Virus record (IMG/VR): IMGVR_UViG_3300021387_000175
Coordinates: 1 to 64,000 of that record
From: a virus
Lineage: Duplodnaviria > Caudoviricetes
Direction: 5' to 3' (one strand)
DNA length: 64,000 bases
Position numbers and translations under genes: made by a program. How positions within the stretch are numbered: position 1 is the first letter of the stretch; every line of letters begins with the position of its first letter. Shown piece by piece: positions 33,923-56,012 of this stretch. The notes below the pieces were generated by a model. That model was not told where the DNA came from and searched no databases. It worked only from the letters and a program-made list of their open reading frames with translations.

Positions 33923-36900
33923 TCACGCATACTTATACTTACTCATGGAATTCTTACCTAATACCGCACCCAATGTCATATCCTGTACTGCGTTCTGGAA
34001 GTTACGATCAGCTACAAGAGCGGACTTGAACTCATCATAATTCTTCACATTAGGAAGTGTGATACTTAACTGAATGGTAGTATTCGGTGAGAGAGTAGTA
34101 TTAGTGGTATTATTGATGACAGGCTGAGATCCGAAAGACTTAGCAAACATATCGGGAATATTCATTTTCGCTAATTTCCAGAGATTATCTGTCATTTCAG
34201 CATTGAATACCGCATCACCTCTACCAAGAGGAGTGAGGATAGCACCATCAGACTTACGGATAATAGTCTCAAGACCTTTTTCCTGAGTCCAGGCATTCAG
34301 ATCAGTAGGAACTGATTTAATACCTGTGACATAATGCCATCTTGCATGATAAGCATCGGAATCTTCTTTCGCTTTATGATAGGCGTCTTGTGCTTCATCA
34401 AATCTGGTTTTAGCATTTGCAAACTGTACTTCCAACCTGTTTAATTGACGCTCTAACTCTTGTATTTCTCTTTCTTTGTTTTCGTAGTTCTGTTTCGCTT
34501 TTAATGCTTCTTCAGATAATTGTCCTACCCTTGATTGACCTTTATATTTAGTAAATTTACTACGTTCCTCTTGCCGTTCTTTGTTTAACTGAGAAATATT
34601 ACGTTTAGTCTCAGCGATTTGTTCATTTAAAGTATTAAAATTGGAATATGCCTCATCTACTGTTTTCTTTGCCTGTTTAGTTTTACTATCCTTATCAATG
34701 GTATTCATCTTTTTAGACAAATTCTTCACCGTTGTAACGGTAGTATCATCTAAGGCGTCTTTTTCTTCTTGAGACATTCCTTTATACTCTTTAATAATGG
34801 ATCTAACAGCATCGTAATCCTTTGCCTTTAACTCTTTTTCTTTGCCAACATATCCAGAGACTTTTTCTCTAAAAGCTGCTTTTGCCTGTTCTTCAGGCTG
34901 ACGGGCTGCATCATCTATTACAGATTTTACGGCAGCTTCAATACGATTTTGTAAAGAACCGTTTTCTTTTAAAGAGCCAACAAGATTATCAGTGATATTT
35001 TTATCTACTTGTTTCAAAGTGTTAACAGTATCTGTTGTGTTACTACTTACACCAAGTGCATCAATTTTATCAGCAAGTAAATCTTGCATCTTTAAAAGAA
35101 CTCTATCACGATCTTTCAGATATCTATCAATCCATTCTTGGAAGTTAGCAGACAAATCATCCAACATCTTTTGGGCATCAGATAAGTACTTACTATATTC
35201 CGCATCCCGGAGATCCTGTCTGGCATCTTTAATATCTTTCTGCAGTTTCTGAATCTTAGATACAGATTCCTCAGAGGTATTATTCTGCCAAGCAGCTAAC
35301 TGTTTCTCCAGATTGGTAATATTATTAGCCTTTTCAGTAATTTGTTTCTGATAATCATAGGCTTCTTTCTCGGCATTCTTTAACTCTTTATACTTACTGA
35401 TTGTTTTATTCAGAGCAGTAAGCTGTGCTTCATAACCTTGACGAGCCAAATCAATGACTGCCTGCTTAGATGCTTCAGCAGCTTCCATAGATCCCCAATA
35501 AGCATCCTGTAATTCATTCATACGATCAATTACTTCTTTATCTGTAGGATCTAATTCATTATCATTGATCTTTTTGACCAAAAGATTATACTCATGTAAA
35601 TACTGCTGTGCTTCCGCAAGATTTGCTTTATAATCCGTATTCTTCAGATCCAAAGCAGCCATACCATATTTAGTAATATTACCTTGATTATCTGTATCAA
35701 AGAACTGTTCGTTGGAAATCAGATTATAATAATGATCAATCTCAGAGTTCAAACGCTTCGCACGTTCAATACCATCATCAAATTTCTGCCAGTTAAGCTT
35801 CTCCATAGCCATAGCTTGCTCATGAATATCCAGATTCAATTCTTCAATAGAATCTTCCAATTCAGCTATGATTTGTTTCGCTTCAAACCATTCATCAGAA
35901 CCTACAGTTAAGTCCTTAAGAAGTTTTTGCTGTTTTGCTAATTCTGCATTATATTCAGCAAGCATAGAAACATCTTGACGAATAATGTTCTTATAATCAT
36001 TACGTTGAGCATAATGACCATAAGCCTCTGCTGCATCAATACGTTGTTGCGCTTTTGTTTTACGGCGGTCATACTTATAACGATCTTTTTCACCTTGATT
36101 CTGAACATTCTTCATCTTTTGAAGTCTGCGTTGTTCATTCTCTTTTCTAATGGTTTCTTTATTAATTTCCGCTTGTGCTTTTGCTTCACGTCCCTGTTCA
36201 ATTGCTTCATTATAACTCAAGCAAGCCTCTAAGAAGGATGCCTGAATATAACCCGCATTTACCAGTTCTGCAATTTCACCAATAGTGTCACCATCAATAG
36301 CCACTTTTGCCTTAATATTCTTTTGGACTTTAGCTAAGGCTTTTTCTACACGAGATTTGACTTTCTTATTTTCATTTGCATCATATTTCTCTGTAGTTGC
36401 ATTACCTTTCTTTAACGTGGTTTTTATTTTTGTGGCGTTCTCTTTCCTAAGCTTTGCAAATTTTTCAACTTTCGCCCGATCATTCTTTTTCTGTGCTTCC
36501 GCAATTTTAATTTGCTCATCAATTAATTTGTTTTGACCATCAGCTGTTGTTTTATTTTCAATTTGTTTATCACGAAGATTGATTTTATTTTGTAATCGCT
36601 CATTTTTGTTATCATACATTTGAGCGTAATTCTGATAGATCTGTTGAATGTTTTCAGCAACCGCCAACATTTCTTCCATTTTTGCATCTTCGAAATTTTG
36701 CAACGTCTGATTATAAACAACCAATTGAGCTGCCAATTGAGGATTCTTTTTCTCAATATAGCTAATATCTTTTTCTTTGACGGGTTTATTGTGATCCATC
36801 GCAGTTTTTATACGTTTTAATACTGTTTGATATTCTTTATGAGACTTTTTAACAGTTCCATTTTTAACCCGTTCTTTTTCTAGTTTAGCTTCTTCCTTTG

Positions 36901-39900
36901 CTAATAAAGGATCAAGTTCAATCGATACTTCTTTTGACGCTTCTTCAAAATCTTGAAGATTCTCTTGAGTGGCTTTTCTATGAATTCTAATTTGCTTTCT
37001 TCTTTGACGATTTTCATAACGAAGTCTGCCGTTAGAGTATTGATAAGCATTATCAGTTCTTGCTTCAAAGTTGCTTTGAGCAATTTGAATGAAGTTATCA
37101 GATAAACTAACTCCCGCATCACGTTGTGCATCATGAACTTCTTTTAATGATTTGGCATATTCACGAGCCTGGGCCTGAAGTTCTTGAAGGGCATTCTTAG
37201 CTTCAATAGCCTTATCAATCCATTCTTGAGTACCTTCAATTACTTTACGGGTATCTTCATCATAGCTATTGATATCAATTTCACCATTAAGAATTTTATC
37301 CCATAATGCATCTTGATTTTCTTTGGTTTTTTTAGGTATGCCCTTTTGGTTCATTCCCTTTTTGAAAACTTCTTCAGCTTGGGCATAGTATTTATCATAT
37401 GCTGCATCTTCATTGCCTATTTGCTCATATATTTTTTCTAAAGCATCTTTGTACTTTTTCTCTGATAAACCATATGCCATACGGTCAAGGAATTCTTCAG
37501 CGAGAGAGGAGAGTTGATCAATCTTAGTTTGAACACGCTCTATGCGGATTTCAATCCAATCAAAAAGTTTATCGAGGTATTTATCAAAGGCATCGGTCTT
37601 ATCTTTCTTTTTGGTGGTGGTTGAACGTTTTCCATCGCCGTTACCGCCACTGCCTTTACGCCTTCCACCGTTGCCATTACCGTCACCATCTTTACTATCT
37701 TTTTTAGGCTTCCGTTTAGTATTTACAGGTTCAATATTAACATCACCATTAATAATAATAGTACCATTATTACCCAATGTCTTATTTAAAGAATCTAAAC
37801 CAGTAGAACCACCTGCATAAGCTACTCCACGAGAATTTATAGAACCATATTTAAACAGTTCTTCTGTTTGTTTATGGTTGAAAATAATATCGCCTTTTTT
37901 AACGTCTCTGAATTCAGCACCAGATTCGCCCAGTAAATCCCATTTAGTACCACGTACACGGAGTTCTGGGCCGAGTTCACCTACAAGAGAGGGTTCTGTT
38001 TTCTTAGCACCTATTGTACCTGATGCAAATGCGTTACCTTTAAATAATGAAAAATGAGCATTGCCTTTATATGAACCTGGTCCATCACCATTACCATTAC
38101 TATTTTCACGGTTAATTTTAATTTTAATATTAACAGTACGATTCATTTTATTTAATTCGCTGTTAATATTAGATAAAACTGTTTTGGTTGAATTTGCTTC
38201 ACTATGCAAAGATCCTAACACTTTGCTACCACTAACAGAAACACCATTAATACTATTAATAGTATTTTTAGCAGTACGTGCCTCAGAAGAAATATTCTTT
38301 TCTTTAGAAGCTACCCCTTCAAGATTTCCACTTATAGAACTCAGACTAACATCATTAATTTTTCCAACGTCATTAACACTTGTATTGGCTTCTTCAGAAA
38401 TATGTGTTATACCTTCATCAAAATTAGTAGTATCTAAGGTGGCTTTATATTCAATAACTGTTTCTGTAGTTGTAGTTTCTTGTTTTGGTGCTTCTCCACC
38501 ATCACCATTCGGACCTTTTTGCTCCCGCTTATGAAGCTTTTTAGTATTGGTATTAACTTGTTGCCCACTTTGGTTTAATGCGGTTGAGGTTGTCAATCGC
38601 CCCATTGTTTGTTCTATCGTTGTTAAATTAGTGAGAAGTTGGTCAGAACCTAATGTACCTATTGTATAAGAATTAATAGTTGTAATTGCTTCACCCAAAT
38701 TTTGTGCTGCAGAAGCAGATTCTTCACTTATAGTCGTATTAAGATCTTTAATTGCTTGTTGAGCCTTTTTCGTATTTAATCTATCAGCTTCTTCTTGTAT
38801 TTGCTCAAAGGTTGTTTTTCCGCTTTCCCCTAATGATTTTATTGCTGTAGAAGAAGTAGTAAGATCTATATTATTAAATAGCGCACTTAATTGACCATTT
38901 GAAAGCTGATTCATTTCTCGTAAATCGCCAACAATACCTTCAATTTGTTCTCGTGCCTTTTGTCCTGCAGTACGATCCCCAGTTGCTTCAGCAATTTTAT
39001 ATGCTTGCGCTGCAGCGCTAAGTTCATTAATTTTTGCAGCAAAATCTTTTTCTGCTCCCTCTTCCATACCAGAGATATCAATTACATATGTCTGGTTGGT
39101 CAAGGCAGCTAATTGTGCTTGTGTATTTTTAATTAATTCATTAAGCGCTTCTAAAGACGCCTGACCATTTTCGGTATCAATAAAATCGCCATTTTCGTCA
39201 TATAACGCTTTTTTTGCTTCTTCTAACTTATTTAATGCAACGGTAGCATCAACAGCATTATCATACTCAAGATCAAAATCAATTTGATCATCCTTCTCAA
39301 GACCTTTATTTACAGTTTCTTTTAATTCCTCTAACTCTTCAGGAGTCTTAAAACTATCAACTGCAATTTTATATAATTCTATTTGACGGTTAGCATCGGC
39401 TATTGCGTTAGTGTATTGATTCCATAATTCAGAATTTTCTTCTATCTCTCCACTATTAAGACGCTCATTCATTTCATCAATAGATTTACTAAGCTCATCT
39501 ATAGTAGTCGGCGCTCCATCTAAAGGATCAAGAAGATCATAAGTTACTCCTGCATCAAGCATTGATTTCACCAATTCACTCGATACAGAGAATCCTTCTT
39601 TTCCTAATACATTTTGCATATAATCTGATATCGCTGCAGCAATCATTCCTTCGTCTCCAACAGCAAAATTCAAATCACCATTTTCGTCAAAGAAACGCTC
39701 CATTCCTGCTTGATGTAATGCTTTTTCCGTCATGTCAAGAAAATCATTTACACCTTCGTTATCATTAGTCATGTATTTTTTAATAAAGTCCGCAATATTC
39801 TTTTTTTGCCCATAGACTTTATCACCATTCATAGACTGACCCGTGATCATTTCCATATATGCAAGGACTTCAGGATCTGCCCAACGTTCATTGTCTAATT

Positions 39901-42847
39901 TACCCTTGATAGTATCCCATCCTCCACGGATGGTATCATACATAGTCGCATCAGATCCCATCTCTTGAGACTGTAACCATTTCTGATAAAGGCTATCAGA
40001 TACTTCGATCTGAGCATTCATTTTTGCCCAAGATGTTAATCTGGTCTGAATTTGACTTTGCTCTTGTGATAAAACACTAAGACGAGTTTTTTCGGCATCT
40101 GTTAATGCTTCACTCTTACTTGTGAGGCTTTCAATTTCTTCTTTATTCTTTTTATATTTAGTGGTTAATTTATCATATTGATCATTTAACTTCTTACTAA
40201 TATCATGTTTTTGAGTATTAATCATTTCCTGCGCAGCTTTTGCATTTAATTGCATGCCATTCGCACCTATAGAAATTGCATCTGCAAAACCTTGATATGT
40301 TTCAGTTAAAGATTCAAAAGTTTTTTGTGATAAAAAGCCATTCTTGCTTTGTTCTGCCATAGCAGAAGAAAGTGCTGTTGAAGATTCGGCCAATGTATTG
40401 ATTGCAGTATTCGTACTATCAGCGAATTCATTCCATTTATCAGCAGCTCTACCTGTAGTTGTTGCTGATACTAATTCAAATTGCTGCATTAAATTAATTG
40501 CGTCTTGAATAAAAGTAGGAGATTGGAAATCTACTAATCCTGCTCGACCAAATACTCTGGCAACATTCATTGCGGATTGTTGGATAGAAGAGTACTGATC
40601 TTCAGGAATTGTCCAATCAATTTCACTTAATTCTTCAGCACTAATTTCTTTAAGATCCTTTAATGCATCTGTATAATTATCTTTTAATTTTTCTTTTACT
40701 TTATCATTGATAAATTTATCTGGATCAAAAGTCATAATTTCATCGGCCTTTAAAGAGCCAATAATTTTTGACCATGAAGTACCTGCAATATAATGTGCAA
40801 TTCGATCATTTTCTGAGCCAGATAACATGCTCATCAATGAAGACTTTCTATTTTTAAATACCTGTTGAGTACTATCAATACCAAAAGCATCAATTAATTC
40901 CTGACGTTTATCTTTTCCAATATGAAGCGCATTCATAGCTGCATCAAGGCGCTGTTTCATAATATCTGCATAATCATTAACATCTATCTTGGATAAATCA
41001 GGAGAGATAAAATCTTTAAGTACTTGAGAAGCCTCGCCTGTAGCATCTGATCGAATAGTATCAACAAATTTTAAATAATCTTCAGCACTAATTAATGCTT
41101 CTTTTGAAAATTGCTGTAAATATGCAACTCCATCTTGTGTTACTTGACTATCCAAGCTAAGATCGGGCGTAATTTCAGCATATGATTGTTTTAAATAATC
41201 AACAGCATTTTGATAACTCTCTTGTGCCGATGTTATTTCAGCGTAGTATTGCTTAATTTGATTTTCTAAATCTGTAATAACTTTTGACTTCGATTCATTC
41301 CGATATTTTGCTTCACCCGTAAAGCTATCGTAATCATAAGCTACCTTTACAGTATCGCCCTCTTGTTCTTGAATTTCTTTAATTTGTTGCTTTAATTTAT
41401 CTATTTTTCCTTGATTTTCTGCGGTTTTATCGTCAACCGCTTGCTTTAAAGCAGGTATTCCTGCATTAGAAGAAGGATTCACTAAAGAATCAATATTAAA
41501 AGAAGTTGCGTCAATTATAGCCCCTTCTTTTGCTTGGGCGAGTTCCCTATATTTATTAATCTGATCTTGAATAATTTCAGTATTTGCGAGAATAGCATTA
41601 CCTTCACTATCCCAACCAGTAACTAATTCAGGGAATTGTTCTGCAATTTGTTGACGAATAGCATAATATTCTTCAGATCCTGCTTCAGCTTCTCTATACT
41701 GATCCAAAAGATGCTGAAGAGAATTGGCGCTATTATTATATTCATCATATTCTTGTTTGAGTGCGTCTGCTTTCTCTTTACTGGAATCAATAAGTTTTTG
41801 ATTACGCTTGGCTACAGCATCAAGGCTCATTGAATAATTATCATAAGCAAATTTTGCTGCAGCAGCAACTGCAGCAATCGCAGCAATGACTAACGCAGCT
41901 TTACCAAGAGTGGTTAAATGTATTCCCGCTTTTTGAGCTGCTTCTCCAACTCCATTTATCGCATCGGAAGCATCTGTAGCAGTACCCACCACTTCACTGG
42001 ATACACCTAAATACATTTCCCAAGCTTCACTTGTTCCTTCGGCTGCTTCTGTTACAGTGTTTACAGCTTCACTTGCTCCTTCTGCTGCGGGTGTCACCTC
42101 ATAAAAACTATGAATAACATTTGAAAGCAATTCAGTTATACCAATTTTATCTTTTCCCGCTTTCAAGATTGTACCATATATAGCAAAACCTGCTCCTGCT
42201 ACTGATGGAATTAAACCTATAGCATTAACAACTTCCATTACCGCTGACGCAAGATCAAGAAAAAAGTTAATGGTTTCACGATTTGCAGTCCCTGCCCAGG
42301 CTTGTTGCCATTGGTTCTGAAGAACTGCAAGATGGCCTGAGATAGAATCCATGTATTTCTCATTTTCTTCCATAGCAGAACCAAAAGAAGCTTGAGAAGA
42401 TTCATAAACGTCTCGTAAAACATCTTTGTTTTGTAATATCGATGCGACAATGTTCGCTCTATTTTTTCCCGCTAACGTTTCGAGCAAACCATTCGCACGG
42501 TTCGTGCCATATTGTTTATCTGTTGCAATTATTTCTTCATAGACATCTGCAATATCCTGAAGAATTTCATACGTACTTCTGAAATTACCGTTTTCATCAA
42601 GTATATCTACACCTTTAAAGCCATTACTGGCTACAGCAGTGTAATCTTTAATTATTTGTTGAGATTTCGCTGATGTTTGGACTACAAAGTCATCTACGTC
42701 TTCTCCAAGATCAGCAAGTTCGGCCTTGGCTTCCTCTGTGCCAACAATTCTCAAAGCAACCGTTCTCATTGCATTGCCGACCTTTTTAGGGTCTTGCACC
42801 ACTGCATTCCCGGCAGTAATTAAAGCGATTGCTTCATCAATGTCATT
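33923..42847 (-). CDS. tape measure protein, exon 2 (spliced product 5364 aa)
   Basis: Begins NDIDEAIALITAGNAVVQDPKKVGNAMRTVALRI, the continuation of the conserved TMP domain; has TM segments, a 'LVGELGPE...GAEF...GDIIFNH.QT' block and long coiled coils. The track's GTG start at 42802 has no RBS. Confidence 0.9.
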   Translation of the reverse strand, partial: NDIDEAIALITAGNAVVQDPKKVGNAMRTVALRIVGTEEAKAELADLGEDVDDFVVQTSAKSQQIIKDYTAVASNGFKGVDILDENGNFRSTYEILQDIADVYEEIIATDKQYGTNRANGLLETLAGKNRANIVASILQNKDVLRDVYESSQASFGSAMEENEKYMDSISGHLAVLQNQWQQAWAGTANRETINFFLDLASAVMEVVNAIGLIPSVAGAGFAIYGTILKAGKDKIGITELLSNVIHSFYEVTPAAEGASEAVNTVTEAAEGTSEAWEMYLGVSSEVVGTATDASDAINGVGEAAQKAGIHLTTLGKAALVIAAIAAVAAAAKFAYDNYSMSLDAVAKRNQKLIDSSKEKADALKQEYDEYNNSANSLQHLLDQYREAEAGSEEYYAIRQQIAEQFPELVTGWDSEGNAILANTEIIQDQINKYRELAQAKEGAIIDATSFNIDSLVNPSSNAGIPALKQAVDDKTAENQGKIDKLKQQIKEIQEQEGDTVKVAYDYDSFTGEAKYRNESKSKVITDLENQIKQYYAEITSAQESYQNAVDYLKQSYAEITPDLSLDSQVTQDGVAYLQQFSKEALISAEDYLKFVDTIRSDATGEASQVLKDFISPDLSKIDVNDYADIMKQRLDAAMNALHIGKDKRQELIDAFGIDSTQQVFKNRKSSLMSMLSGSENDRIAHYIAGTSWSKIIGSLKADEIMTFDPDKFINDKVKEKLKDNYTDALKDLKEISAEELSEIDWTIPEDQYSSIQQSAMNVARVFGRAGLVDFQSPTFIQDAINLMQQFELVSATTTGRAADKWNEFADSTNTAINTLAESSTALSSAMAEQSKNGFLSQKTFESLTETYQGFADAISIGANGMQLNAKAAQEMINTQKHDISKKLNDQYDKLTTKYKKNKEEIESLTSKSEALTDAEKTRLSVLSQEQSQIQTRLTSWAKMNAQIEVSDSLYQKWLQSQEMGSDATMYDTIRGGWDTIKGKLDNERWADPEVLAYMEMITGQSMNGDKVYGQKKNIADFIKKYMTNDNEGVNDFLDMTEKALHQAGMERFFDENGDLNFAVGDEGMIAAAISDYMQNVLGKEGFSVSSELVKSMLDAGVTYDLLDPLDGAPTTIDELSKSIDEMNERLNSGEIEENSELWNQYTNAIADANRQIELYKIAVDSFKTPEELEELKETVNKGLEKDDQIDFDLEYDNAVDATVALNKLEEAKKALYDENGDFIDTENGQASLEALNELIKNTQAQLAALTNQTYVIDISGMEEGAEKDFAAKINELSAAAQAYKIAEATGDRTAGQKAREQIEGIVGDLREMNQLSNGQLSALFNNIDLTTSSTAIKSLGESGKTTFEQIQEEADRLNTKKAQQAIKDLNTTISEESASAAQNLGEAITTINSYTIGTLGSDQLLTNLTTIEQTMGRLTTSTALNQSGQQVNTNTKKLHKREQKGPNGDGGEAPKQETTTTETVIEYKATLDTTNFDEGITHISEEANTSVNDVGKINDVSLSSISGNLEGVASKEKNISSEARTAKNTINSINGVSVSGSKVLGSLHSEANSTKTVLSNINSELNKMNRTVNIKIKINRENSNGNGDGPGSYKGNAHFSLFKGNAFASGTIGAKKTEPSLVGELGPELRVRGTKWDLLGESGAEFRDVKKGDIIFNHKQTEELFKYGSINSRGVAYAGGSTGLDSLNKTLGNNGTIIINGDVNIEPVNTKRKPKKDSKDGDGNGNGGRRKGSGGNGDGKRSTTTKKKDKTDAFDKYLDKLFDWIEIRIERVQTKIDQLSSLAEEFLDRMAYGLSEKKYKDALEKIYEQIGNEDAAYDKYYAQAEEVFKKGMNQKGIPKKTKENQDALWDKILNGEIDINSYDEDTRKVIEGTQEWIDKAIEAKNALQELQAQAREYAKSLKEVHDAQRDAGVSLSDNFIQIAQSNFEARTDNAYQYSNGRLRYENRQRRKQIRIHRKATQENLQDFEEASKEVSIELDPLLAKEEAKLEKERVKNGTVKKSHKEYQTVLKRIKTAMDHNKPVKEKDISYIEKKNPQLAAQLVVYNQTLQNFEDAKMEEMLAVAENIQQIYQNYAQMYDNKNERLQNKINLRDKQIENKTTADGQNKLIDEQIKIAEAQKKNDRAKVEKFAKLRKENATKIKTTLKKGNATTEKYDANENKKVKSRVEKALAKVQKNIKAKVAIDGDTIGEIAELVNAGYIQASFLEACLSYNEAIEQGREAKAQAEINKETIRKENEQRRLQKMKNVQNQGEKDRYKYDRRKTKAQQRIDAAEAYGHYAQRNDYKNIIRQDVSMLAEYNAELAKQQKLLKDLTVGSDEWFEAKQIIAELEDSIEELNLDIHEQAMAMEKLNWQKFDDGIERAKRLNSEIDHYYNLISNEQFFDTDNQGNITKYGMAALDLKNTDYKANLAEAQQYLHEYNLLVKKINDNELDPTDKEVIDRMNELQDAYWGSMEAAEASKQAVIDLARQGYEAQLTALNKTISKYKELKNAEKEAYDYQKQITEKANNITNLEKQLAAWQNNTSEESVSKIQKLQKDIKDARQDLRDAEYSKYLSDAQKMLDDLSANFQEWIDRYLKDRDRVLLKMQDLLADKIDALGVSSNTTDTVNTLKQVDKNITDNLVGSLKENGSLQNRIEAAVKSVIDDAARQPEEQAKAAFREKVSGYVGKEKELKAKDYDAVRSIIKEYKGMSQEEKDALDDTTVTTVKNLSKKMNTIDKDSKTKQAKKTVDEAYSNFNTLNEQIAETKRNISQLNKERQEERSKFTKYKGQSRVGQLSEEALKAKQNYENKEREIQELERQLNRLEVQFANAKTRFDEAQDAYHKAKEDSDAYHARWHYVTGIKSVPTDLNAWTQEKGLETIIRKSDGAILTPLGRGDAVFNAEMTDNLWKLAKMNIPDMFAKSFGSQPVINNTTNTTLSPNTTIQLSITLPNVKNYDEFKSALVADRNFQNAVQDMTLGAVLGKNSMSKYKYA

Positions 42848-43288
42848 CGATTTATTATGAGTTTAAAACTCACTTTTTTATTATGCAATGCATAATAAAA
42901 ACTGCATCTTTCGATGCAGTCCAGACTATTTCTTCATCTTCAGCTTTACCTGTTAAGAGTACCCTTTTCGATTTAAGAGATTTTCACTCACATATTAAAT
43001 ATATGCCCTACGATTATTGATTTAAGTATTCAGGATTTCCACCTTTATTCTCTTGCTTAAATCCCGACATGGATCTAGTCGTTGAACGTTCACCCTCGAC
43101 TCAAGCACCGTATGTTCTACAGAATACGTTAGGGTGCTTCGCTGCATGAACAGCCAATCCTTACGTTTTAAAACCATCATAATATAGTTTCCTTATTATT
43201 GTGGTGTAAGGCTCTAAGGCATTACCTGCAATTAAGAATATTCATATAATACATTTCTGTATTATCAGGCAATTAGACATTTCTTTTT
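42848..43288 (-). ncRNA. group I self-splicing intron (441 nt, no homing endonuclease) in the TMP gene
   Basis: 5' exon ends GCAGGU and pairs with IGS GCCUG (43266..43270, G.U at the splice site). P AAUUGCAGGUAA (43222..43233), Q CAUGCAGCGAAG (43137..43148), R GUUCAACGACUAGA (43074..43087), S AAGAAAUAGUCU (42923..42934); terminal G at 42848. Removal gives in-frame SLKTAG|NDIDEAIA. Confidence 0.93.
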
Positions 43289-46200
43289 ACCTGCTGTTTT
43301 CAATGAACTTGCAGACAACTGCAATGCCGTTGCCAGTCCATCAGTACTAATTGAAAAATTGTTACCTACATTATTAAGCTTATCAATGATATCAAGTTTG
43401 TCTAAATCATCATAAGCAGCGCTCATAGCTACTAAACTTTCAGTAGCCTCATCTATACTTCCAAACTCAGATACATTAAATAAAATAGCAGCATCTTTTG
43501 CAGATTCTTTTGCGTCATCAAGCGTCTCTCCAAGCCTCATCCAGTCGGCAGTACTTTGCTGAATAGTTAATCCAGTAGTACCTACGCTGTTTGCCATATC
43601 ATAGCTTTCTTTTTGGAAATCACGAAGACGGGAGAGTGGTTCATCAGATACTTTTGCCATTTCTGTCAGAGCATCATCTAACTGATGAATAATATCAAAA
43701 CCCTCACGAGCATAACGAATAAAATCTTGAAAACTTACATAGGATAAGAGATAAGCACCAAAATCACGGAATTTCTTGGTTAACTTTGTGGCAAAAGTAT
43801 CACCAGTTTTTCCTGCTTCACGCATCGTTGTTTCAAGTCTATTGACCTGGTCAATAGCATTGTTTAACGATTGTTGATTAACATTCTGTAAACCATCACT
43901 AATTTCTTTTAATTGATTTCGAATTTCTCCACCCATCGCAGGATTTTTTTCGATTAAAGTAGCAATCCGTTTTTTCAAGTTACTTACATTCTTATCTAAT
44001 ACTTGAATATTATCTGTATTACCCAACGCCTTTTGTAAGTCATTGACTTTTACTATTAACTCACCAATTTCTTTGATATCTGACTCGTTTGTAATATCCA
44101 AACCATTTTTTAATTTTGCTTGTAAGCTATCAATAGTCTTATTATATTCTTCTAATTGCTTTTTATAAGCAGTAGTATCAACTGCTCGTTCTTGATCAGC
44201 AAATTCTTGAAAACTATCTCTTTTTTTTACTGCTTTATCTAATGTACTCATAGCAGATTTAGTCAAATTTTGAGAAGCATCATCTAATGCTTTTTTGACC
44301 TTGGCATCCGATTTAGGATCGGTATCAGTACGATCTGCTAATAATTTTGTTCGTTCCTGAAGTTTATTAACGATTTGAGAATATGCTGTATCAAAAACTT
44401 CCTTTGTTCCTGAATCAAAAGCATCTTTACCTAAAGAACCAATATTTTTAATCAGCCCTTCTTCGGTAGTATACGAAGCGTCTAATGCTTGCTTTTTTTG
44501 TTTTTGTGATTCTCGTTCACTCTTTTTTCTTTTTCTTTCATTTTCACGTTCTTCTTTTTCAATTTCTTTATTTAATTCTTTTTCTTCTTTGGCTTGTTGT
44601 TTTTGTTCATCCGCTTTTTTCTTGGCTACATCTTTTTTGTGTTGAGCAAAATGTGCTTCACGATCATCTAATTTTTTAGCTTCCTCTAACTGTTTTAAAT
44701 TTTCTTCCTTTTTCTGCCGTATATTCTCATAAGACTGCCTTTCTTCATCCGTTAAAAGAGCAATCTTTTCATTTAATTGATTATCAATATCTACTAAACT
44801 CTGAGTACGCTGAGTAGCGGTAACATTATCTTTTGCGGGATTAGTAACATCCGTTTCTAATAATTTATAACGTTTATCCAACAATCCTTTAACTGTGTCA
44901 AATGCTTTAGCAACATTTTCCTCCATACCAGTTTCTACTGTCTTTTTTACAGTCTTGCTTTCAGGATCATATTTATAATTAGTGCGCCATTTTTTCTTTA
45001 TACCGTTTTCATCAGTTTCTTCATAATCAACAGAATATCTGGACATATTACCAAATTCATCTTGGGAATAATGCTGATTTCTTCTGTTATAATCATTAAA
45101 ATATTTTTCGTCCTCAGAAATTGCTTTTAATAAAGCTTTATGAGTTTCTTCACTTAGTCTTTCTTCTTCATCTAAATCGGCTTTCTTATCTTTTTCAGTT
45201 TTTGATTTCTTGGCATTTTTTTCTTCGTTTGTTTTTTCTTCTTTTTCTTGATCGGTTTGTTTCTGTAATTCCAAACTTTTTGCTATTGATGAAAAGTCAG
45301 TTTGATTTAATGTTTCAAAGCCCTTATTCAACTGCTTTACTAATTCAGAAATGTACTCTAATTCTTCCCTTAACTGTTCAATAAATTCTACTTCGTTCCA
45401 AATTACTCCTTCTACTGTTGTGTTTTCATCTTTAAAAGCTTGTGTTTTATTTTGTATTGCTGTGTTAACATGCTCTATTGCTTGACCTAATTTTTGAAGT
45501 TCGTTAGTTTCTTTGGTAAAATCTAAAGATTGACCAGTCGTTTCTGTAGTATTTCTGATTTGTGCAATTGCTTCGTTTAATGATGGGATTACTGTCTTGA
45601 TTTTTTCAACTGTATCAGTCAATGGCTTGATTTGATTCTGTAAATCTATATTTTTACTAATTGAAGAAAAATCAGTAGTGTTTAATATATTAAAAGATTG
45701 ACCTAATGTAACAGCTAATTCAGATACCGCTTTTAATTCTTCCCTTAGTTGCTCGATGAATACTACTTCATTATAAATTACTTGTTCTACTGTAGAGTTT
45801 TCTGCTTGAAAGGCTTTTGTTTTTTCATCAACTGCAGTTGTTACTTTTATAACTGCATCTAAAAGATTACCAACTTGGGTTGCTTCCCCTGAAAAGTCTA
45901 TTGACTTACCAGTAGTATCTATTAGTCTTTTTAACTCAGTTGTCACTTCAGTTAAAGGAGCAATTATTTTTGTGATTTCTCCAAAACTAGCAGATAGTTC
46001 CTGTACGTTTAATTGACTTCCTGAAAAAATATCCCGAAGTATATTCATTTGATCATCAATTTCAGTTATGGATTGAGTATCTATTTGTTTTAATGCAGTT
46101 TCATAATTATCGAATATTCCACCAAATTGTGTTTCCCAGGAACTAATATCAATATTGCCGACTTTTGCCATCTCTTTCATTAAAGAAATAACTTCTTTAT

Positions 46201-49200
46201 AATATTGAATAGTTGAAGTAAGATTCTTTTGATCATAACCCTCATAACCTTTCCACGCTAACTGGACCTGTAAATCAGACCCTCCATTAGCACCAATTGA
46301 TTCTTTAAAAGAATCGGTTCCAGGTTTATAAAGCATTTTCATTAATGCATCAGATGCTTCTTGTATTTGTGGTATAAACGATCTCTTTACCTGTCCCTCT
46401 TCACGACTCTGCTTAATTGGGTTGTTACTTTTACCTAATGCTATATTAAAATTAAAATTACCAATCTGTTTAATTGATTCATTGATCGTATTTAATATGG
46501 TATTTACGTCTGTAAACGGCTTTGTAAAATCCATATTCTTAATACTATTAGCTAAATCCCTTATCTCACTTAAACTATTTTTAATTGTATTGAAAGATCC
46601 TAAAGGATCTGTTGAAGCCAGATAATCAATTCCGACTTTAATTTTTTCCAAAACATCAGACAGTTCTGTAAAAGAGGATGCGAAATCTAAATGGCTTAAG
46701 GTCTCAAGTGTCGTACTAATCGTACTAATACTTGTTTTAAATTCTTCAAAAGAAGAGAAGGCATCTAAGTTCTTTAATGCTTGTAATTCTGTTACAAGAT
46801 TTTGAACTAAAGTAATAAGTACTCCAAAAGCTTCCGCATAATCACCAGTCATTTGACTAGGATCGAAATCCATAGTAAGATCATTTAAGTGTTCTTGTAA
46901 ATGTTCGTATTGATTAGCGTATTGTTGATAATCGTTTAAATAATGTTCATACCATCCTAAATAATCTTTTGCCTGGTCTTCATTACCTTCATTTGAAGAT
47001 GCAGCAGCATGTTGATAATACCAATCCATATTATCTAATGCAGCGTCCCGTTCTTGTTTAACACTCTGCAATTCTTCTGATATTTTTTTTATATCGTTCC
47101 AATCATCTATGTCCCAATAATCCTGATAATCTTTATTATCCGCTTCTGCTCTTAACTGTCTTTTTTCATCAGCTAATTTTTGAAGTTCTTCTCTGGTTTT
47201 GGCAATTATTTTATATTCTTCTTCCGTTTGGGGAGAATTTATATTATCAAAATCTGATGTAAATGACTCTTTAGAACGAATATCATTTAATACTTCTTCT
47301 AAAGATAATACTTCAGTCTTAACACTTCCAATATCATCTGTTAAATTTTCAAATCCATTTTCTTGTAATATTTCAGTAGGAAATTCTTTTAATGACGCAA
47401 ACATTTTTTCAAACGCTTCAACAGTTTGAGGAAACTCTTCTTGAACAGATGAGTCTAAACTATCATAGATTTGTCTGATTTTAGAAATAAACTCATCCAT
47501 TTCAGGACTGATATCACCAATGCTTCCACCCAGTGCTTCAAAAGCATTCGCTTGTTTTAATAAATTGGATACTTTTCCTGATCTAAGAAAATCTTCTTCA
47601 CTAATATTCCCATTATCCCAATCAGATAACAACTGCTTTTTATTTAATAATCCATTCCATCGTTGCCGTAATCTTTCTTCCGAAGCTTCTGGAGATTTAA
47701 AGTAAGAACTTAAATCATCTGTATCTTCGTCCAAAATACTTTGCAATCTATCAGAAATTTGTCGTCTAGAACGCTCTCTAAATTCTGTAACTTGTTGTTC
47801 TAAGAGATTTAAAGCATCATCATAATATTGAACATTGGCTGCCGTCTCAATAAATCTATCATCCATAAAAGGACTGGAATCATTTTCTACATCTTCTTTG
47901 TATATAGCTTCTAATTTCTTTCTTAATTCTTCCTGACGCCATTCTTTTTCTTCGGCAACCTTTTGCATTTGATCCAAATACTTTGTAATTAATTCATCTG
48001 GATCTCCATCATATGGATCAGGGCCAAAGAAATTTTCAAATAATTTATCAGGATCAAGTTGGGAATATTGATGTTCATCCAGTATTTTTTGTACCTTTTG
48101 TGAAACTTTTTTTCGTTCTGTTTCTCTTTCACTTTCTTGCGTTAACATTCCAAATAAATCAAATTTTTCTACAGGCGGCGCTGATTTTATAGATTCACCA
48201 TATTGATTTTCTACGGCCTTTGTAGTTTCGTCTTCAGTTTCACGTAACGCATCTGCTAATTGTCGTTCTGCATCTAATTCTTCATGGATTTTATCAATAT
48301 TTTCTTCCCTGGCTTGTACTTCTTCACGAATATTTTCAGTTTGACTTTCATCCTCGGTAGAAGGGGGTTGAATATTATTTTCTTCTTTTTTTACTCGAAG
48401 TAATTCTTCACGAGCCTGCGTTTCTTCTTGGATATCTAAAGCATTACTATCCCGTTCTTTCTTTTTTGATTCTCTTTCTTTCTCTTTTAATTCATTATTT
48501 TCTTTATGGTTTAATATCCCTTGATTTTGTGAAACAGCTTCTTGAACCATTGCAGCGGAATATTGCGCAAATTCTTGTTTATCAAAAATATGGAATATTT
48601 CATCCATATTCTCAATTCCGTATTTAAGTAGCACGTCTTTTATTGAATTTTGTAATTCATTTTTTGCTTCGTCATACGAAGAGTATTCTTTCTTTTTATA
48701 TTTAATTTGATCTAAATCTGATATAACTGAACCACGAATATTTTTAGGTATTGCATTTAAATCAAGAAAAGATACATTATCTTTAGTAACTATAGCATGA
48801 ATAGCAGTATTTCTTTCTTCCTTCCAATCTTCATTCGCATATCTACGCCATGTATCAATATCAGAATGTCGTGCTTTAGAACCCGTTGTTTTTGTGGTTG
48901 AAGGAATTGCCATTCCTGAACTTCCATCATTATTATTTGGATGTGTATGTAAAGTGAAAAGCGCACCTTTTTCATGCACGTGTGAGGATTTTTCACCACC
49001 TTCTAGAATATCTGAAAAATCTCCATTTGCTTTTATATAAAATCCCTTTTCATTTCCTTCGGTATCAATATCTATGATTTTTTTTATAACTTGATCTAAG
49101 TTAGGAATTTTACTTAATAATCTTGCAGAACTTAAACCGATTTCATTCGCTCTACGTTGCTCGGCTGCAGATGGTACATTTTTTCCAAAATTTTCAATAT

Positions 49201-50458
49201 CATACATATCTGCAAATTGCTGTTCTTGCCAATTTTTACTTCTTAAATATCCATTTCGTCTATTGTTAATATAACTAAATTCTGCTAAGTCAGTAGGAGA
49301 GTGGATAGAAACACCATTATTATAAAATTCAGAATATTTCTCTCTATCTATATTATGAAAAATTATATTATCAACTTTATCTCCTCTCCCCAAGGCTTTT
49401 TGTCCTGCGATAGTTTTAAAGATCTCTGCACGATTTTCATCTAATTGATTACTTATTGAAGTATATTCTGCATCAGACAAAGATTCGTCATTTAATGATT
49501 CTTGTAATTCAAAATTTTTTGCTATTAGTGTTTTGATTTTTTTGACAAAATCTTCTTCTGACAATAAATAACTACGAAGATAATTTTCCCGTTGTTGCTT
49601 AACCTCTTCAGTTAATTCTGGTAATTGGCTTGATGTTATTTCCAAAGATTTTTCTTTTTTTGACTTAGGAAGTGGTTTAGTTTGATTTTTACTAGAAGTA
49701 ATAGAAGATGCTAATTTACTATAAGATCCTCCATCCAATGCTTCTTTTTGTTGTTCTACAAAAATTTTTATATCTTTATCTATTAAGTCGTTTTTTATTA
49801 AGTCTTCACTATACATATCTGCTTCTTCCAAATATGTATATAACATTTGTAATGCACGTTTTACCACATCTTGAGTATTATAAGTTAAACTTTCTACTAA
49901 TCCTTGATAAGGCTTTTTGTAATATTCTATCATTTTTTTGTTTAAACCTTGATCAGTAGCATTTAATCCTTCGGCAAAATTTGCTTCTTTAATATATTTT
50001 TTTAACGTGTCAGGATCTTTGAAATCACCATAATTAATTAATCCATTATTTTGCGATGCCAAAGCATGTAACAACTTAGGTAAAATTTCTTTTGCGTCTG
50101 CAATATCTTGTTTATCACTGTTACTTTTTAATACTTGAATGGCATCATTTATTTCATATCGAATATTTTCCGGGCTTCCTAAATCTAATAATTTTTGTAA
50201 TTTTACATCTGACTTTAATCCCGCTCCTAACCCAGTAAGTAATTTGTTTAAAGATTCTACTTGCTCAACAGTCATATCGGCTGACTTCGCTAAATCTTCA
50301 AAAAAGTTTTTTTGTTTCTTCGCATCTTTAACACGAATTATAACATCAATAACTTGTGTAATTGTTGCAGGCTGCCCTGTGCCCTTTATTCTACCTAATA
50401 ACTCATTAAGCACTGCTTCTGGTTTAATAGGAGAACCTGAACCTAATTTTTCTGCCAT
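43289..50458 (-). CDS. tape measure protein, exon 1 (long N-terminal extension with JAB/MPN-like motif, then start of the TMP domain)
   Basis: AGGAGGTGA RBS; C-terminal part LDDALTEMAKVSDE...ADWMRLG..NVSEF..IDEAT..L..DKLNNVGNNFSIS..GLA.AL..SAS.L is the TP901-type TMP domain. Confidence 0.9.
45270..45915 (-). repeat. tandem ~90-aa duplicated unit in TMP exon 1
   Basis: TTGKSIDF...KTKAFQAENSTVEQVIYNEVVFIEQLREEL...LNTTDFSSI versus TTGQSLDF...KTQAFKDENTTVEGVIWNEVEFIEQLREEL...LNQTDFSSI. Confidence 0.85.
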
Positions 50459-50529: not shown

Positions 50530-51258
50530 ATGATTAAAATTTTAGAAATTAATGAAATAACCTATTCCATTATTTCGATCTATCATGATTTTTCCGATTT
50601 TAAATCTTTAAGATATTGGTTATACAAAAATCAATATACGTATATGTTTTTTGCCGAAGATATATTCTTTACATTTTCTAGTTTTGATGATTATCCCAAT
50701 TATATGTGTTTGCCTATATGTATCAAAATATGGGATAATCACAATAAAGAAAATGATTTTGTAATTAATGCATTAAAGAATGAAGGATATTTTGTTTTTA
50801 TTGTTGATCCTGGATACAAAAAAGAAGAATATAGATTTTGGAGCCGTAAACACAATGTATGGTATGTTGTTAAGTACGAATATTATAAAATCCAAAATAA
50901 TTACGTTTTAATAAAAATAGAAGATGAAGATGAAAATAATCTAGGATATTGTTGGAAATATATTCGTAAAAATAACTATGGGAAAAAATTCAATTGTAAT
51001 TCTACGATTCTGACTAGAAATATGATAGAAGAAGGATTAAAAATTGAATCAAACATACCCGATAGAATCAAACGACATTTTGTGCGATATCTTAGAAATT
51101 GTAAAGCTATGATAGGCACTAATTTTTTCTATCTTGAAAATGAAGAACAAAGCTATCCAATTAAAATAAAATTTGAATTGGATAATTATTATTTGTTAAA
51201 AAAAGCTATTTTGCAAATGCACAATTATATAAATAATATTATCGATATAGTTGAATAA
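50530..51258 (+). CDS. AT-rich antisense orphan gene (moron), function unknown
   Basis: 242 aa, own promoter and RBS, fills the gap between two minus-strand genes without overlap; rich in Tyr/Ile/Asn/Lys. Confidence 0.75.
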   Translation: MIKILEINEITYSIISIYHDFSDFKSLRYWLYKNQYTYMFFAEDIFFTFSSFDDYPNYMCLPICIKIWDNHNKENDFVINALKNEGYFVFIVDPGYKKEEYRFWSRKHNVWYVVKYEYYKIQNNYVLIKIEDEDENNLGYCWKYIRKNNYGKKFNCNSTILTRNMIEEGLKIESNIPDRIKRHFVRYLRNCKAMIGTNFFYLENEEQSYPIKIKFELDNYYLLKKAILQMHNYINNIIDIVE

Positions 51259-52450: not shown

Positions 52451-53017
52451 CTAGTTTTCCTTATATTTAGCACAAACTCCCTCGACTATTTCATCCTGGA
52501 TCCGGCCTTCCATTGCCTTACGAAGAATTGAACAGTTTCTATCATACCGTTTACAGGTTTTGCATTTATCTTCAAAATAATTAGCGGAAGCTTGATTATC
52601 AAACACTCCTACAAAATCTACAGGATAAATAGTCAATTCAATATGTGGATTTTTATTATCGTACATAACCTTTAAAATGCGATTACAAACCATATTATCA
52701 TCTAACCAAACCACACCAGAATCTGTAATAGCATCAGAAATGCACTTATCATAATTAGCGCAATCCATATCGGTCCTTGGAAAATAATAAACCGCATCAA
52801 CATAATAATGCTGATACGGATTTTCACTTTTTATCCAACCTTGTTTTTTCGCCTCTTGTTTTACATATTCTGTAAATCGTTTCTGGAAGTCTTTCGCTTC
52901 TTTTGTCTTATAGGACATTGCCATAGGTTTTCCATTTTTATACATTACACGATATGCAAGATAGTGATTCACTGAAATGAATTCATTTACGGTGAGTTTT
53001 AATACTTGCTTTTCCAT
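52451..53017 (-). CDS. rusA: RusA-family Holliday junction resolvase
   Basis: SVNHY, 'YFPR..MD..N..K...DA' and 'VW.DD..V' RusA catalytic pattern; C-terminal CxxC...C...C extension. Confidence 0.75.
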   Translation of the reverse strand: MEKQVLKLTVNEFISVNHYLAYRVMYKNGKPMAMSYKTKEAKDFQKRFTEYVKQEAKKQGWIKSENPYQHYYVDAVYYFPRTDMDCANYDKCISDAITDSGVVWLDDNMVCNRILKVMYDNKNPHIELTIYPVDFVGVFDNQASANYFEDKCKTCKRYDRNCSILRKAMEGRIQDEIVEGVCAKYKEN

Positions 53018-54856: not shown

Positions 54857-55469
54857 TCAACCCTCGTCATCATCATCAGCCCAAGTAATGTAGTACAGCA
54901 GCTTTTCAGAACCGCAGTAAGAAGACTGCAGAGAACCACTGAAGTCTACAGTAGCATCCGTAGTCAGAGACAGAGAAATCTCAGGGCTGATCTGGAAGGA
55001 CGGAAACGTGATATACATAGCTTTGAGCGTATTGACTGAACATGGATCTATAGCGAGCGCTTTTACAGTCAATTTAATAGTTCCAGGGAATTTGTCAGAC
55101 TCATTAATGATCTTTGCACCAGTATTTACGGTACGCTCGTACTTCACGATGTACTGCTCAATACCTGCAGTAGTAGGAGGAGTCAAAGTAGTAACTCCGT
55201 CAACAGTGGTAACATTATAAGCAGTCAGATCATAAATCTGACCCATACCACCAGAGGTGTTCATATCAGAAACCTGAATAGTACCTTCAATATAACCAGT
55301 GATATCCAGGGTCTCACCCTTCTTCACAACGGCAATACGAGGCATAACAATAGTATGAGAAGCGGTAGCCATTTCAGCATCTGTACCAGAAGCGGTAGCC
55401 AGAGCAGAGAAGTTGATCATTGCTTCTGTAGCGGTAACTTCGCCAGTTTTTGCCTGCCAAAAGCGTTTT
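54857..55469 (-). CDS. major tail (tube) protein, exon 2 (spliced product 265 aa)
   Basis: Frame is open upstream of the track's ATG: KRFWQAKTGEVTATEAMINFS; highly expressed-type codon usage; position after the head-tail joining genes. Confidence 0.8.
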
Positions 55470-55767
55470 CAATTTCTGTTACTTCTATGACCTATTATGA
55501 ATATAAAAATGCAAATAATAGGCGAGTAAGTATTTCTACTTACTTCTCACATTTCATTTTTTTAGATTATAGTGTGAGTTCAGACTGTATATTCATCCTT
55601 ATAAAAATAAGGAGAGCCACTTCAATATATATGTCACCATATATATCCTGCAGTCGTTACGGATTCTCTCATATAAAGAGTCTTTCCTCGGTCTTGTCCA
55701 TCTCTGGAGTTTAACCGATATAGTGGCTTTTTAATTATGTATTACTACATAACCTGGCAAAACTTAT
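55470..55767 (-). ncRNA. group I self-splicing intron (298 nt, no ORF) in the tail tube gene
   Basis: 5' exon ends CUGGU and pairs with IGS GCCAG (55754..55758); adjacent GUUUU pairs with 3' exon AAAAC (P10). P3 AGCCACU/AGUGGCU (55722..55728/55615..55621); P7 R GUAACGACUG (55651..55660) and S AAUAUACAGUCU (55582..55593); terminal G at 55470. Junction GU|A restores Val: DAQGTLV-KRFWQ. Confidence 0.92.
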
Positions 55768-55952
55768 ACCAGAGTGCCTTGGGCATCAACAGCGTCTTTA
55801 GATTCAGCAGTAATATCAACAGTAAAATTATTTAACTGAGACATCAGCAGTACAGGTACATCAGTATCTACACCATTAATTTTCTTTGTCATTTCACCGT
55901 AGGCAAATTGTACTCTGTCCACGATTATGTCACCAAGCATGAACTGTGCCAT
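55768..55952 (-). CDS. major tail (tube) protein, exon 1
   Basis: AAAGGAG RBS then ATG 55952 (MAQFMLGDIIVDRVQFAYGE...ITAESKDAVDAQGTL). Confidence 0.8.
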
Positions 55953-56012
55953 AGTGTACTCCTTTCTTGACTTTTTAGTCACAATAAAAATTTTCAGCAA
56001 TAAAAAAGAACC

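Follow-up and report, generated by a model that had tools for sequence, protein, structure and literature searches.

An uncultured gut phage has an interrupted tail tube gene: what is the interruption, and is the gene whole once it is taken out? The question is raised by the IMG/VR virus record IMGVR_UViG_3300021387_000175, a contig of 136,099 bp from a metagenome assembly with an estimated completeness of 88%, of which positions 1 to 64,000 were analysed and are referred to here as the window. The sequencing runs that hold this phage are animal-gut metagenomes. On the minus strand of the window, a gene predicted to encode the tail tube protein is interrupted by an insert of 298 nucleotides (nt) at 55767..55470. 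This insert is very probably a group I intron lacking an open reading frame (ORF), possibly of the IA style typical of phages, with helices from P1 to P10, a single hairpin in the P7.1/P7.2 position, and the peripheral helices P9.1 and P9.2. A group I intron had been proposed here in a first-pass annotation made from the letters, and the proposal is upheld by the anatomy of the splice sites, by a junction that matches uninterrupted homologues and by covariation across a family of related introns.

Exons, splice sites and reading frame

Exon 1 is preceded by an AGGAG Shine-Dalgarno sequence (55963..55959, minus strand) located 6 nt upstream of its ATG, and its 3' end reads GGC ACU CUG GU, closing at 55768. 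Exon 2 opens at 55469 with A AAA CGC UUU UGG and reaches its stop codon at 54857. Joined together, the two exons make 798 nt that code for 265 amino acids (aa) and a stop, whereas the insert, being 3 x 99 + 1 nt long, shifts the frame. The insert begins with AUAAG (AUAAGUUUUGCCAGG) and ends with GAAAUUG. The first-pass annotation had listed for it a stop codon, a frame shift, P1, P10, P3, P7 and a terminal G, all of which were recovered at the same positions (Table 1).

The internal guide sequence fits both exons. P1 can be extended so that UCUGGU of the exon pairs with GCCAGG at intron nt 10-15, the last U pairing with G10, and the ligated exons would pair contiguously with 10 nt of the guide through P1 and P10. 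When all combinations of T-ended 5' sites and G-ended 3' sites were scanned, the pair 55767/55470 was found to be the best, with a P1 of 6 bp and a P10 of 5 bp, and this same pair leaves the frame open for 81 and more than 200 codons on either side.

We infer from these features an RNA that is catalytic and is spliced in vivo. The tube gene would be transcribed as one precursor messenger RNA (mRNA) in which the intron folds, and the guide (nt 5-14) would pair with the last bases of exon 1 to form P1, in which the cleavage site is marked by a U·G wobble. After a first step initiated by guanosine, P10 would form between the guide and the opening five bases of exon 2, the terminal G would enter the pocket in P7 and the exons would be ligated. 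The resulting mRNA would encode a siphophage tail tube protein of 265 aa. In unspliced RNA, translation would halt at the TAA two codons into the intron. Production of the tube protein might then depend on an efficient ribozyme, as the first-pass annotation had suggested.

Junction in uninterrupted homologues

When exon 2 was used as a protein query, 67 of 186 candidates proved to be homologues at E <= 0.001, and most of these are 244-276 aa long; the Pfam family PF27173 is precomputed for these homologues. In the PHROG profile phrog_2729 ('virion structural protein'), residues 3-172 of exon 2 correspond to profile positions 56-222 of 252, which therefore leaves the first ~55 positions for exon 1. 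All thirteen full-length homologues that were aligned run without a gap from the part encoded by exon 1, through one valine, into the part encoded by exon 2, and the junction of the window (GTLV|KRFWQ) is present as GTLVKRFWQ in the seven closest of the thirteen. One uninterrupted protein, P0003, which is 265 aa long, shares 98% identity with exon 1 (residues 1-62) and 95% with exon 2. Excision had been claimed to restore a 265-aa ORF, with alignment to intronless homologues named as the check, and the collinearity with all thirteen sequences and the 95-98% identity of P0003 bear this claim out. In a metagenome scan, a single unbroken match over residues 55-70, without the codon-62 intron, was observed in all of the best 80 of 352 relatives, a ranking that favours unbroken matches and so gives no frequency of the intron among alleles.

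An identical gene with an identical intron is present on a second IMG/VR contig (L002/L019). A degenerate pattern combining the 3' end of the intron family with x-K-R-F-W-Q had this twin contig (L019) as its sole match in IMG/VR. The nearest intronless allele (L108) has 91.5% nt identity to the joined exons, 68 of the 798 nt being different. Among the 15 nt directly after the junction, five differ, all of them synonymously, and three of the five P10 bases are included. These differences are suggestive of co-conversion of exon sequence near the junction, for a 15-nt stretch that was picked after looking.

Predicted structure of the interrupted protein

The first-pass annotation had called the host gene a major tail tube gene, and structure prediction agrees. 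The AlphaFold2 model of P0003, built with 29 aligned homologues, has a predicted local distance difference test (pLDDT) value of 79 and a predicted template modelling (pTM) score of 0.58. A Foldseek search of this model against the PDB gave 20 matches at E <= 0.001, with 8xkn_B, a 'tail tube protein', at E 1.8e-11 (TM 0.61/0.66) and 6xgr_A, the major tail protein of phage YSD1, at E 1.6e-9; the tube proteins of phages Chi and JBD30 were also matched. Matches among predicted viral structures were comparable to those in the PDB. The gene is located ~4.4 kb upstream of the gene for the tape measure protein (TMP; 50458..33923), on the same strand. The assignment of the interrupted gene as a siphophage tail tube gene is thus supported by a modelled fold that matches solved siphophage tube proteins. 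In the P0003 model, residue 62 falls at the beginning of a core strand (beta, 61-79), so that the tube fold would not be expected from either piece by itself.

Secondary structure and covariation of the intron

The minimum-free-energy fold of the insert has a value of -73.7 kcal/mol (z = -4.36), and none of 200 shuffled sequences folded as well. Energy minimization alone recovers P2, P3, P4, P5, P6/6a, P7.1, P8, P9, P9.1 and P9.2.

Relatives of the intron were located by a blastn search of the locus against annotated phages, followed by a search for two conserved motifs in IMG/VR. The blastn matches were limited to the Thomasclavelia phages TR-TP1 and TR-TP2, in and directly behind an HNH endonuclease coding sequence that comes after that of the TMP, the window locus having no detectable DNA similarity to any other member of the phage collection. 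The two motifs yielded 78 and 21 IMG/VR stretches, and 86 of 96 loci have blastn matches to the intron at E <= 1e-3.

Covariation was measured in a way that is blind to structure: twelve ORF-less IMG/VR relatives were aligned with MAFFT and the structure was projected from the row of the window. In this alignment, pairs are formed in 91.1% of the 719 cells, a share that drops to 31-42% once the partners are slid by one to three columns, and changes on both sides were found in 45 of the 64 pairs against 12-19 in the slid controls; not one of 500 shuffles equalled any covariation measure. P4 is paired in all rows, with four invariant pairs and one compensatory pair. Compensatory changes occur in five of the seven pairs of P3, in all pairs of P5 (4/4) and P8 (6/6), in eight of the nine pairs of the hairpin at the P7.1 position (97% paired), in five of the six pairs of P9 (100% paired) and in six of the seven pairs of P9.1. 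P9.2 is paired in 56-72%. Covariation backs both arms of the P3/P7 pseudoknot. The terminal G is found at the aligned position in ten of the twelve rows, and the 3' ends of the other two (L074b and L012) are misaligned, their likely ends being after ATATG and GAATG.

A covariance model of the core of the tube-intron family (154 positions), here called R1, was also built. The 92 distinct rows aligned with R1 are 87.3% paired against 32-44% when slid, in an alignment that leans towards the model from which it was derived.

Table 1. Positions in the window of the two exons, the predicted intron and its structural parts.
Feature	Position	Strand	Remarks
Exon 1, tail tube gene (predicted)	55768..55952	-	185 nt; ATG at 55952..55950; 61 codons plus 2 nt
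P1, 5'-exon strand CUGGU	55768..55772	-	its final U is the wobble partner (U·G) at the 5' splice site
Group I intron (predicted)	55470..55767	-	298 nt, without ORF
In-frame TAA	55764..55766	-	unspliced read-through gives GT|A then TAA, 62 residues
Internal guide sequence	55754..55763	-	nt 5-9 GUUUU for P10; nt 10-14 GCCAG for P1
P2 hairpin	55735..55752	-	7 bp, GUAA loop; two compensatory pair changes against L036
P3, 5' strand AGCCACU	55722..55728	-	both sides change in 5/7 pairs
P4 and P5	55688..55718	-	P4 5 bp; P5 4 bp with GAGA loop; A-rich J4/5 and J5/4
P6 and P6a	55661..55687	-	P6 2 bp; P6a 4 bp; loop in which relatives carry an inserted homing-endonuclease ORF
P7, 5' strand GACUG	55651..55655	-	four pairs invariant, one G-C to A-U
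Single hairpin at the P7.1/P7.2 position	55625..55646	-	between P7 and P3'; 9 bp, GUGA loop
P3, 3' strand AGUGGCU	55615..55621	-	from the covariation alignment
P8	55596..55613	-	from covariation and the minimum-free-energy fold
P7, 3' strand CAGUC	55583..55587	-	crosses P3, giving the P3/P7 pseudoknot
P9	55546..55578	-	6 bp, 21-nt loop
P9.1	55526..55543	-	7 bp, GAAA loop
P9.2	55491..55522	-	8 bp; weakest helix
Terminal G (omega-G)	55470	-	intron nt 298; preceded by the family-conserved motif AAGUAACAGA
P10, 3'-exon strand AAAAC	55465..55469	-	5 bp with guide GUUUU
Exon 2, tail tube gene (predicted)	54857..55469	-	613 nt; 1 nt plus 203 codons plus stop

Weighing of the evidence and alternative explanations

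A cmsearch had been named as a further check, and its outcome with the Rfam group I model (RF00028) is divided. The model aligns end to end (positions 1-253) from the 5' splice site, with P1, P3, P4-P6, P7, P8 and P9 in register and the 3' 90 nt (P9.1 and P9.2) outside the match; the E value is 7.2e-6 in a 1.3-kb search and 1.8e-7 for the 136-kb genome. The score of 31.5 bits, on the other hand, is below the gathering score of 50 bits. Since sub-threshold RF00028 matches at E <= 1 were also found in 8 of the 14 control genomes, a match of this kind is insufficient alone, and the case for the intron therefore rests on the covariation and the junction, not on this score.

The low score is one of several observations that weigh against the intron. 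Neither the Rfam search at the gathering threshold nor the E-value search of the whole window lists it. Introns of subgroup IA usually have both P7.1 and P7.2 as extra helices between P7 and P3', whereas a single 9-bp hairpin with a GNRA loop was observed in this position and no second helix was seen. P6 is just 2 bp long and P9.2 is poorly conserved, both being weak helices. No homing endonuclease that could account for mobility of the intron was found in the 298 nt or among the ten neighbouring ORFs scanned, where the RusA-like resolvase at 52451..53017 was the sole match to an endonuclease family. RNA contigs contain no spliced RNA of the window phage. Of the RNA runs, X5 (which shares its sample with the DNA) and X6 contribute one 209-nt contig each, lying inside exon 2 (54984-55191) and uninformative on the junction. 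RNA run X11 has a 1500-nt contig from a ~90% relative in which the equivalents of 55468 and 55774 are separated by seven other letters and GTLVKR is still encoded; this contig may be spliced RNA or may derive from an intronless allele, and is too ambiguous to support splicing. Finally, three protein clusters (P0005, P0006 and P0014) are 187 aa long and share their starting methionine (MINFS) with the ORF downstream of the insert. They are probably intron-bearing alleles shortened by gene callers.

Four alternative explanations were weighed. It is possible, though unlikely, that the insert is a real group I intron that needs a phage or host protein, either a maturase or a chaperone, for efficient splicing in vivo. 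The short P6, the partial pairing of P9.2 and an AU-rich composition (the core has 37% GC) would fit such a requirement, and four of the eight confirmed introns of Bastillevirinae are reported to have needed infected cultures for splicing, which did not occur in vitro (PMC11878797). The core of the intron is nevertheless complete and under strong structural selection, its four GNRA-type tetraloops (GUAA, GAGA, GUGA and GAAA) could support tertiary contacts, and no maturase-like ORF was found in the intron or near it among the ten neighbouring ORFs.

A decayed, inactive intron, with the tube gene being a pseudogene or the contig a defective variant, appears very improbable. The lack of any RNA sign of splicing, the Rfam score and a metagenome assembly that is an estimated 88% complete would be in line with decay, but every helix is intact in the window copy, and 11 of the 17 pairs that changed relative to an 83% identical relative are compensatory, with two more still able to pair. 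Both exons are also open and 95-98% identical to an uninterrupted homologue, while the guide fits its own exons perfectly, including the synonymous exon changes that create P10.

Still more improbable is a split gene in which a 62-aa N-terminal peptide and a 187-aa protein are made separately and assemble, with the insert acting as a mere spacer. The 187-aa ORF (54857..55420, minus strand) does exist with an ATG at 55420, and gene callers give this length in the three clusters mentioned above. However, no Shine-Dalgarno sequence precedes this ATG, unlike that of exon 1 with its AGGAG, and for this reason the ORF does not look independent. Residues 63-78 (KRFWQAKTGEVTATEA), which are conserved in homologues, would be lost, the junction falls within a core beta strand of the tube fold, and the supposed spacer carries a covarying ribozyme fold. 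Lastly, an assembly artefact or chimera, conceivable as a mis-join since intron fragments of the same family are found on other contigs of the source metagenome (run X1), can be set aside as the least credible of the four given the identical gene and intron on the twin IMG/VR contig, a Logan contig of DNA run X1 in which the intron has 0 differences (X1 being possibly the source sample) and boundaries that are exact to the base and match the guide of the intron itself.

With a group I intron as the preferred explanation, the tube gene of IMGVR_UViG_3300021387_000175 would be annotated whole at 265 aa as opposed to the 187-aa fragment given by gene callers.

Intron family and its distribution

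R1 gave 124 matches at E <= 0.01 in 97 sources and detects family introns that the Rfam cut-off misses. Outside the window there are 123 matches, of which 69 have, at a distance of up to 400 nt, same-strand homology to the TMP of the window phage, 15 are at 401-1700 nt from such homology, 38 are unlabelled and one (L036) lies in a tube gene. Ten flanking ORFs were scanned, six of which are TMP, two HNH endonucleases and two without a family. HNH ORFs occur in TR-TP1 and beside L012 and L063. In several phages, two to four introns of the family lie within 1-2 kb of the same TMP gene (L032 with four at 6143-8095, L016 at 6174 and 7089, and L074 at 2086 and 2885). Guide sequences were observed to follow the exon context in L036, L074b, L016/L038, L012 and L086.

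R1 also matches 11 of the 80 bacterial loci listed from a pattern scan of genome contigs, a scan that yields mostly chance matches. Isolates with family introns are Butyrivibrio sp. INlla21, Parablautia muri, Acetatifactor muris and Lachnospiraceae bacterium A4, and several metagenome-assembled genomes also contain them, one of which is labelled Bacteroidales (106.9 bits). These bacterial copies presumably sit in prophages or in binned phage contigs. The bacterial loci with family introns include L203/L256, L214, L264, L207 and L199. In run X1, other contigs match 55515-55547, 55559-55599 and 55681-55723, all pieces of the intron core, in other contexts; the family is therefore present several times in that community.

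The family resides mostly in the tape-measure genes of gut and rumen phages and Bacillota prophages, and the tube-gene copy looks like an off-site colonisation for which the guide was re-matched. It is a compact natural collection for studying the spread of ORF-less phage introns to new sites.

Sister copy at a second site of the tube gene

The closest relative of the intron is a copy of 281 nt that is 83% identical and is located in a homologous tube gene between codons 7 and 8. This copy was found at L036:6785-7065 (the same contig as L006:2076-2356, IMG/VR) and on a metagenome contig at L106:1725-2000, for which the blast figures are the same as those of L036/L006. Its junction is UUGGGU|GACAU (MAFMLG|DIIV), and removal in silico gives MAFMLGDIIVDRVQF. 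The guide of the L036 copy is re-matched in both halves, its P10 being formed by AUGUU with GACAU.

Comparison of the window intron with L036 over 81 pairs shows that 64 pairs are the same, 11 have compensatory changes and 2 have one-sided changes that still pair, while the remaining four are broken and located at helix ends or indels. The two introns are identical at 249 of 301 positions (82.7%) as compared with 598 of 810 nt (73.8%) for the two tube genes. A quick, unrooted tree of 19 full-length core rows (153 columns) placed the two tube-gene introns as sisters with a Shimodaira-Hasegawa-like approximate likelihood ratio test (SH-aLRT) value of 94. Each phage has only its own site occupied: the codon-62 site is empty in the phage with the codon-7/8 copy, with the same CUGGU, and the codon-7/8 site is empty in the window.

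An endonuclease-less intron lineage, with relatives almost confined to TMP genes, may have jumped into the tube gene and then moved or jumped again within this gene, between codons 62 and 7/8, a scenario to which we give slightly less than an even chance. If true, the two copies would document, in nature, ectopic transposition for which ~10 nt of guide pairing were the sole guidance. The obvious candidate mechanism would then be reverse splicing, with a target rule of about GGU|AA. Reverse splicing is cited as a proposed route for ORF-less introns in the Bacillus work (PMC2504315), and spread by this route has been inferred phylogenetically in fungal ribosomal DNA (PMC1299323).

Tape-measure intron of the same genome

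The only other RF00028 match in the genome is located at 43298..42902 (minus strand) with a score of 48.8 bits, slightly less than the gathering score. Two giant ORFs (43265-50458 and 33923-42802; 2397 and 2959 aa) flank it and match the tape-measure profile phrog_4211 contiguously, over positions 551-746 and then 765-1583. On this sequence evidence, the TMP intron reported in an earlier reading is taken to be real. The spliced TMP would exceed 5300 aa, an unusual length.

The tube and TMP introns are both group I introns of the same strand and the same block of tail genes, and both have a 5' end with a UUGCC-type guide followed by a P2 with a GNRA loop. The TMP intron is, however, ~100 nt longer and has no sequence similarity to the tube intron. 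The blastn comparison of the two gave nothing better than E 0.66, and R1 did not match the TMP intron either in the window at E <= 0.01 or in the whole genome at E <= 1. The first-pass annotation had stated that the tube intron is not a copy of the TMP intron, which these searches confirm, and had suggested that the two were acquired independently, which is a fair inference from their lack of similarity. Most members of the tube-intron family cluster near the TMP region homologous to the site of this unrelated TMP intron.

Comparison with known phage introns

ORF-less group I introns in the tail tube and TMP genes of Bacillus cereus-group prophages were described by Tourasse & Kolstø (2008, PMC2504315). 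The prophages with the tube-gene intron are those of B. weihenstephanensis KBAB4 (BwK1) and B. cereus B4264, the TMP introns are TMP-IVS1-3, and the study describes homologous introns that occupy different sites through an altered P1 and guide (TMP-IVS1 and IVS2; term-IVS1 and TMP-IVS3). The prophages and the window phage are alike in having an ORF-less tail tube intron, one or more TMP introns and stop codons early in the intron (PMC2504315). They differ in the host phage group, which here is an uncultured ~136-kb phage of the animal gut, and in that the sister introns of the present family use two sites of the same tube gene. A terminase intron has also been reported (PMC4599081).

Phage Twort, which infects Bacillota, resembles the window phage in that its tail tube gene has group I introns that are small and ORF-less. 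We take its introns to be of IA2 style with P7.1/P7.2 and an extended P9. Twort differs in having three introns in one gene and exon skipping, as against one intron per allele here. Its splicing has been demonstrated experimentally, whereas that of the window intron is predicted, and no sequence similarity between the two was found. In a 2025 study of Bastillevirinae, orf142 of Twort, which contains the introns, is given as encoding the tail tube protein, and phage introns are given as mostly of the IA type (PMC11878797).

The TMP intron of phages TR-TP1 and TR-TP2 (PQ571309.1 and PQ571310.1) is a true sequence homologue of the tube intron and is matched by R1, with L001:1681-1726 being 78% identical to intron nt 44-89 and L001:3001-3175 being 74% identical to nt 101-293. 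Compensatory changes between the TR-TP1 homologue and the tube intron were found in P3, P5, P8 and P9.1. The homologue differs in being located in a TMP gene and in having a 1.2-kb HNH endonuclease ORF in the P6a loop, as shown by the alignment, in which this ORF is flanked by the stretches that match intron nt 44-89 and 101-293. The Rfam search of the TR-TP1 locus gave no group I match, as expected for an intron with a 1.2-kb ORF inside it. The deposited records (PQ571309.1 28534-30045) annotate three coding sequences, namely the TMP gp29, the HNH endonuclease gp30 and a hypothetical gp31, and this layout, together with the homology to the tube intron, indicates a single TMP gene divided by a group I intron that was left unannotated. 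The word 'intron' is absent from the main text of a paper that names TR-TP1 (PMC12694917). The same error of gene callers appears to be repeated, in the three 187-aa protein clusters and in the three-gene TMP annotation of TR-TP1 and TR-TP2.

Introns in phage tail tube and TMP genes and the retargeting of their guides are already published (PMC2504315, PMC11878797), and the adaptation of the guide to new sites has been known in Bacillus prophages since 2008 (PMC2504315). The present case therefore adds examples and no new principle, its added value being the intron family and the sister copy at a second site of the same gene.

Neighbouring genes

A gene for a RusA-like Holliday-junction resolvase was found at 52451-53017 (minus strand; PF05866, E 5.9e-10; phrog_34). 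It sits among the small ORFs between the tube and TMP genes, in the place expected for tail chaperone genes. The only sizeable plus-strand ORF in the long minus-strand block is located directly upstream of the TMP gene (50530-51258, 242 aa) and is without a match in Pfam or PHROG. Downstream of the TMP gene there are three more very large ORFs on the minus strand, at 1517-12616, 17520-24686 and 28918-33771, which code for 3699, 2388 and 1617 aa respectively.

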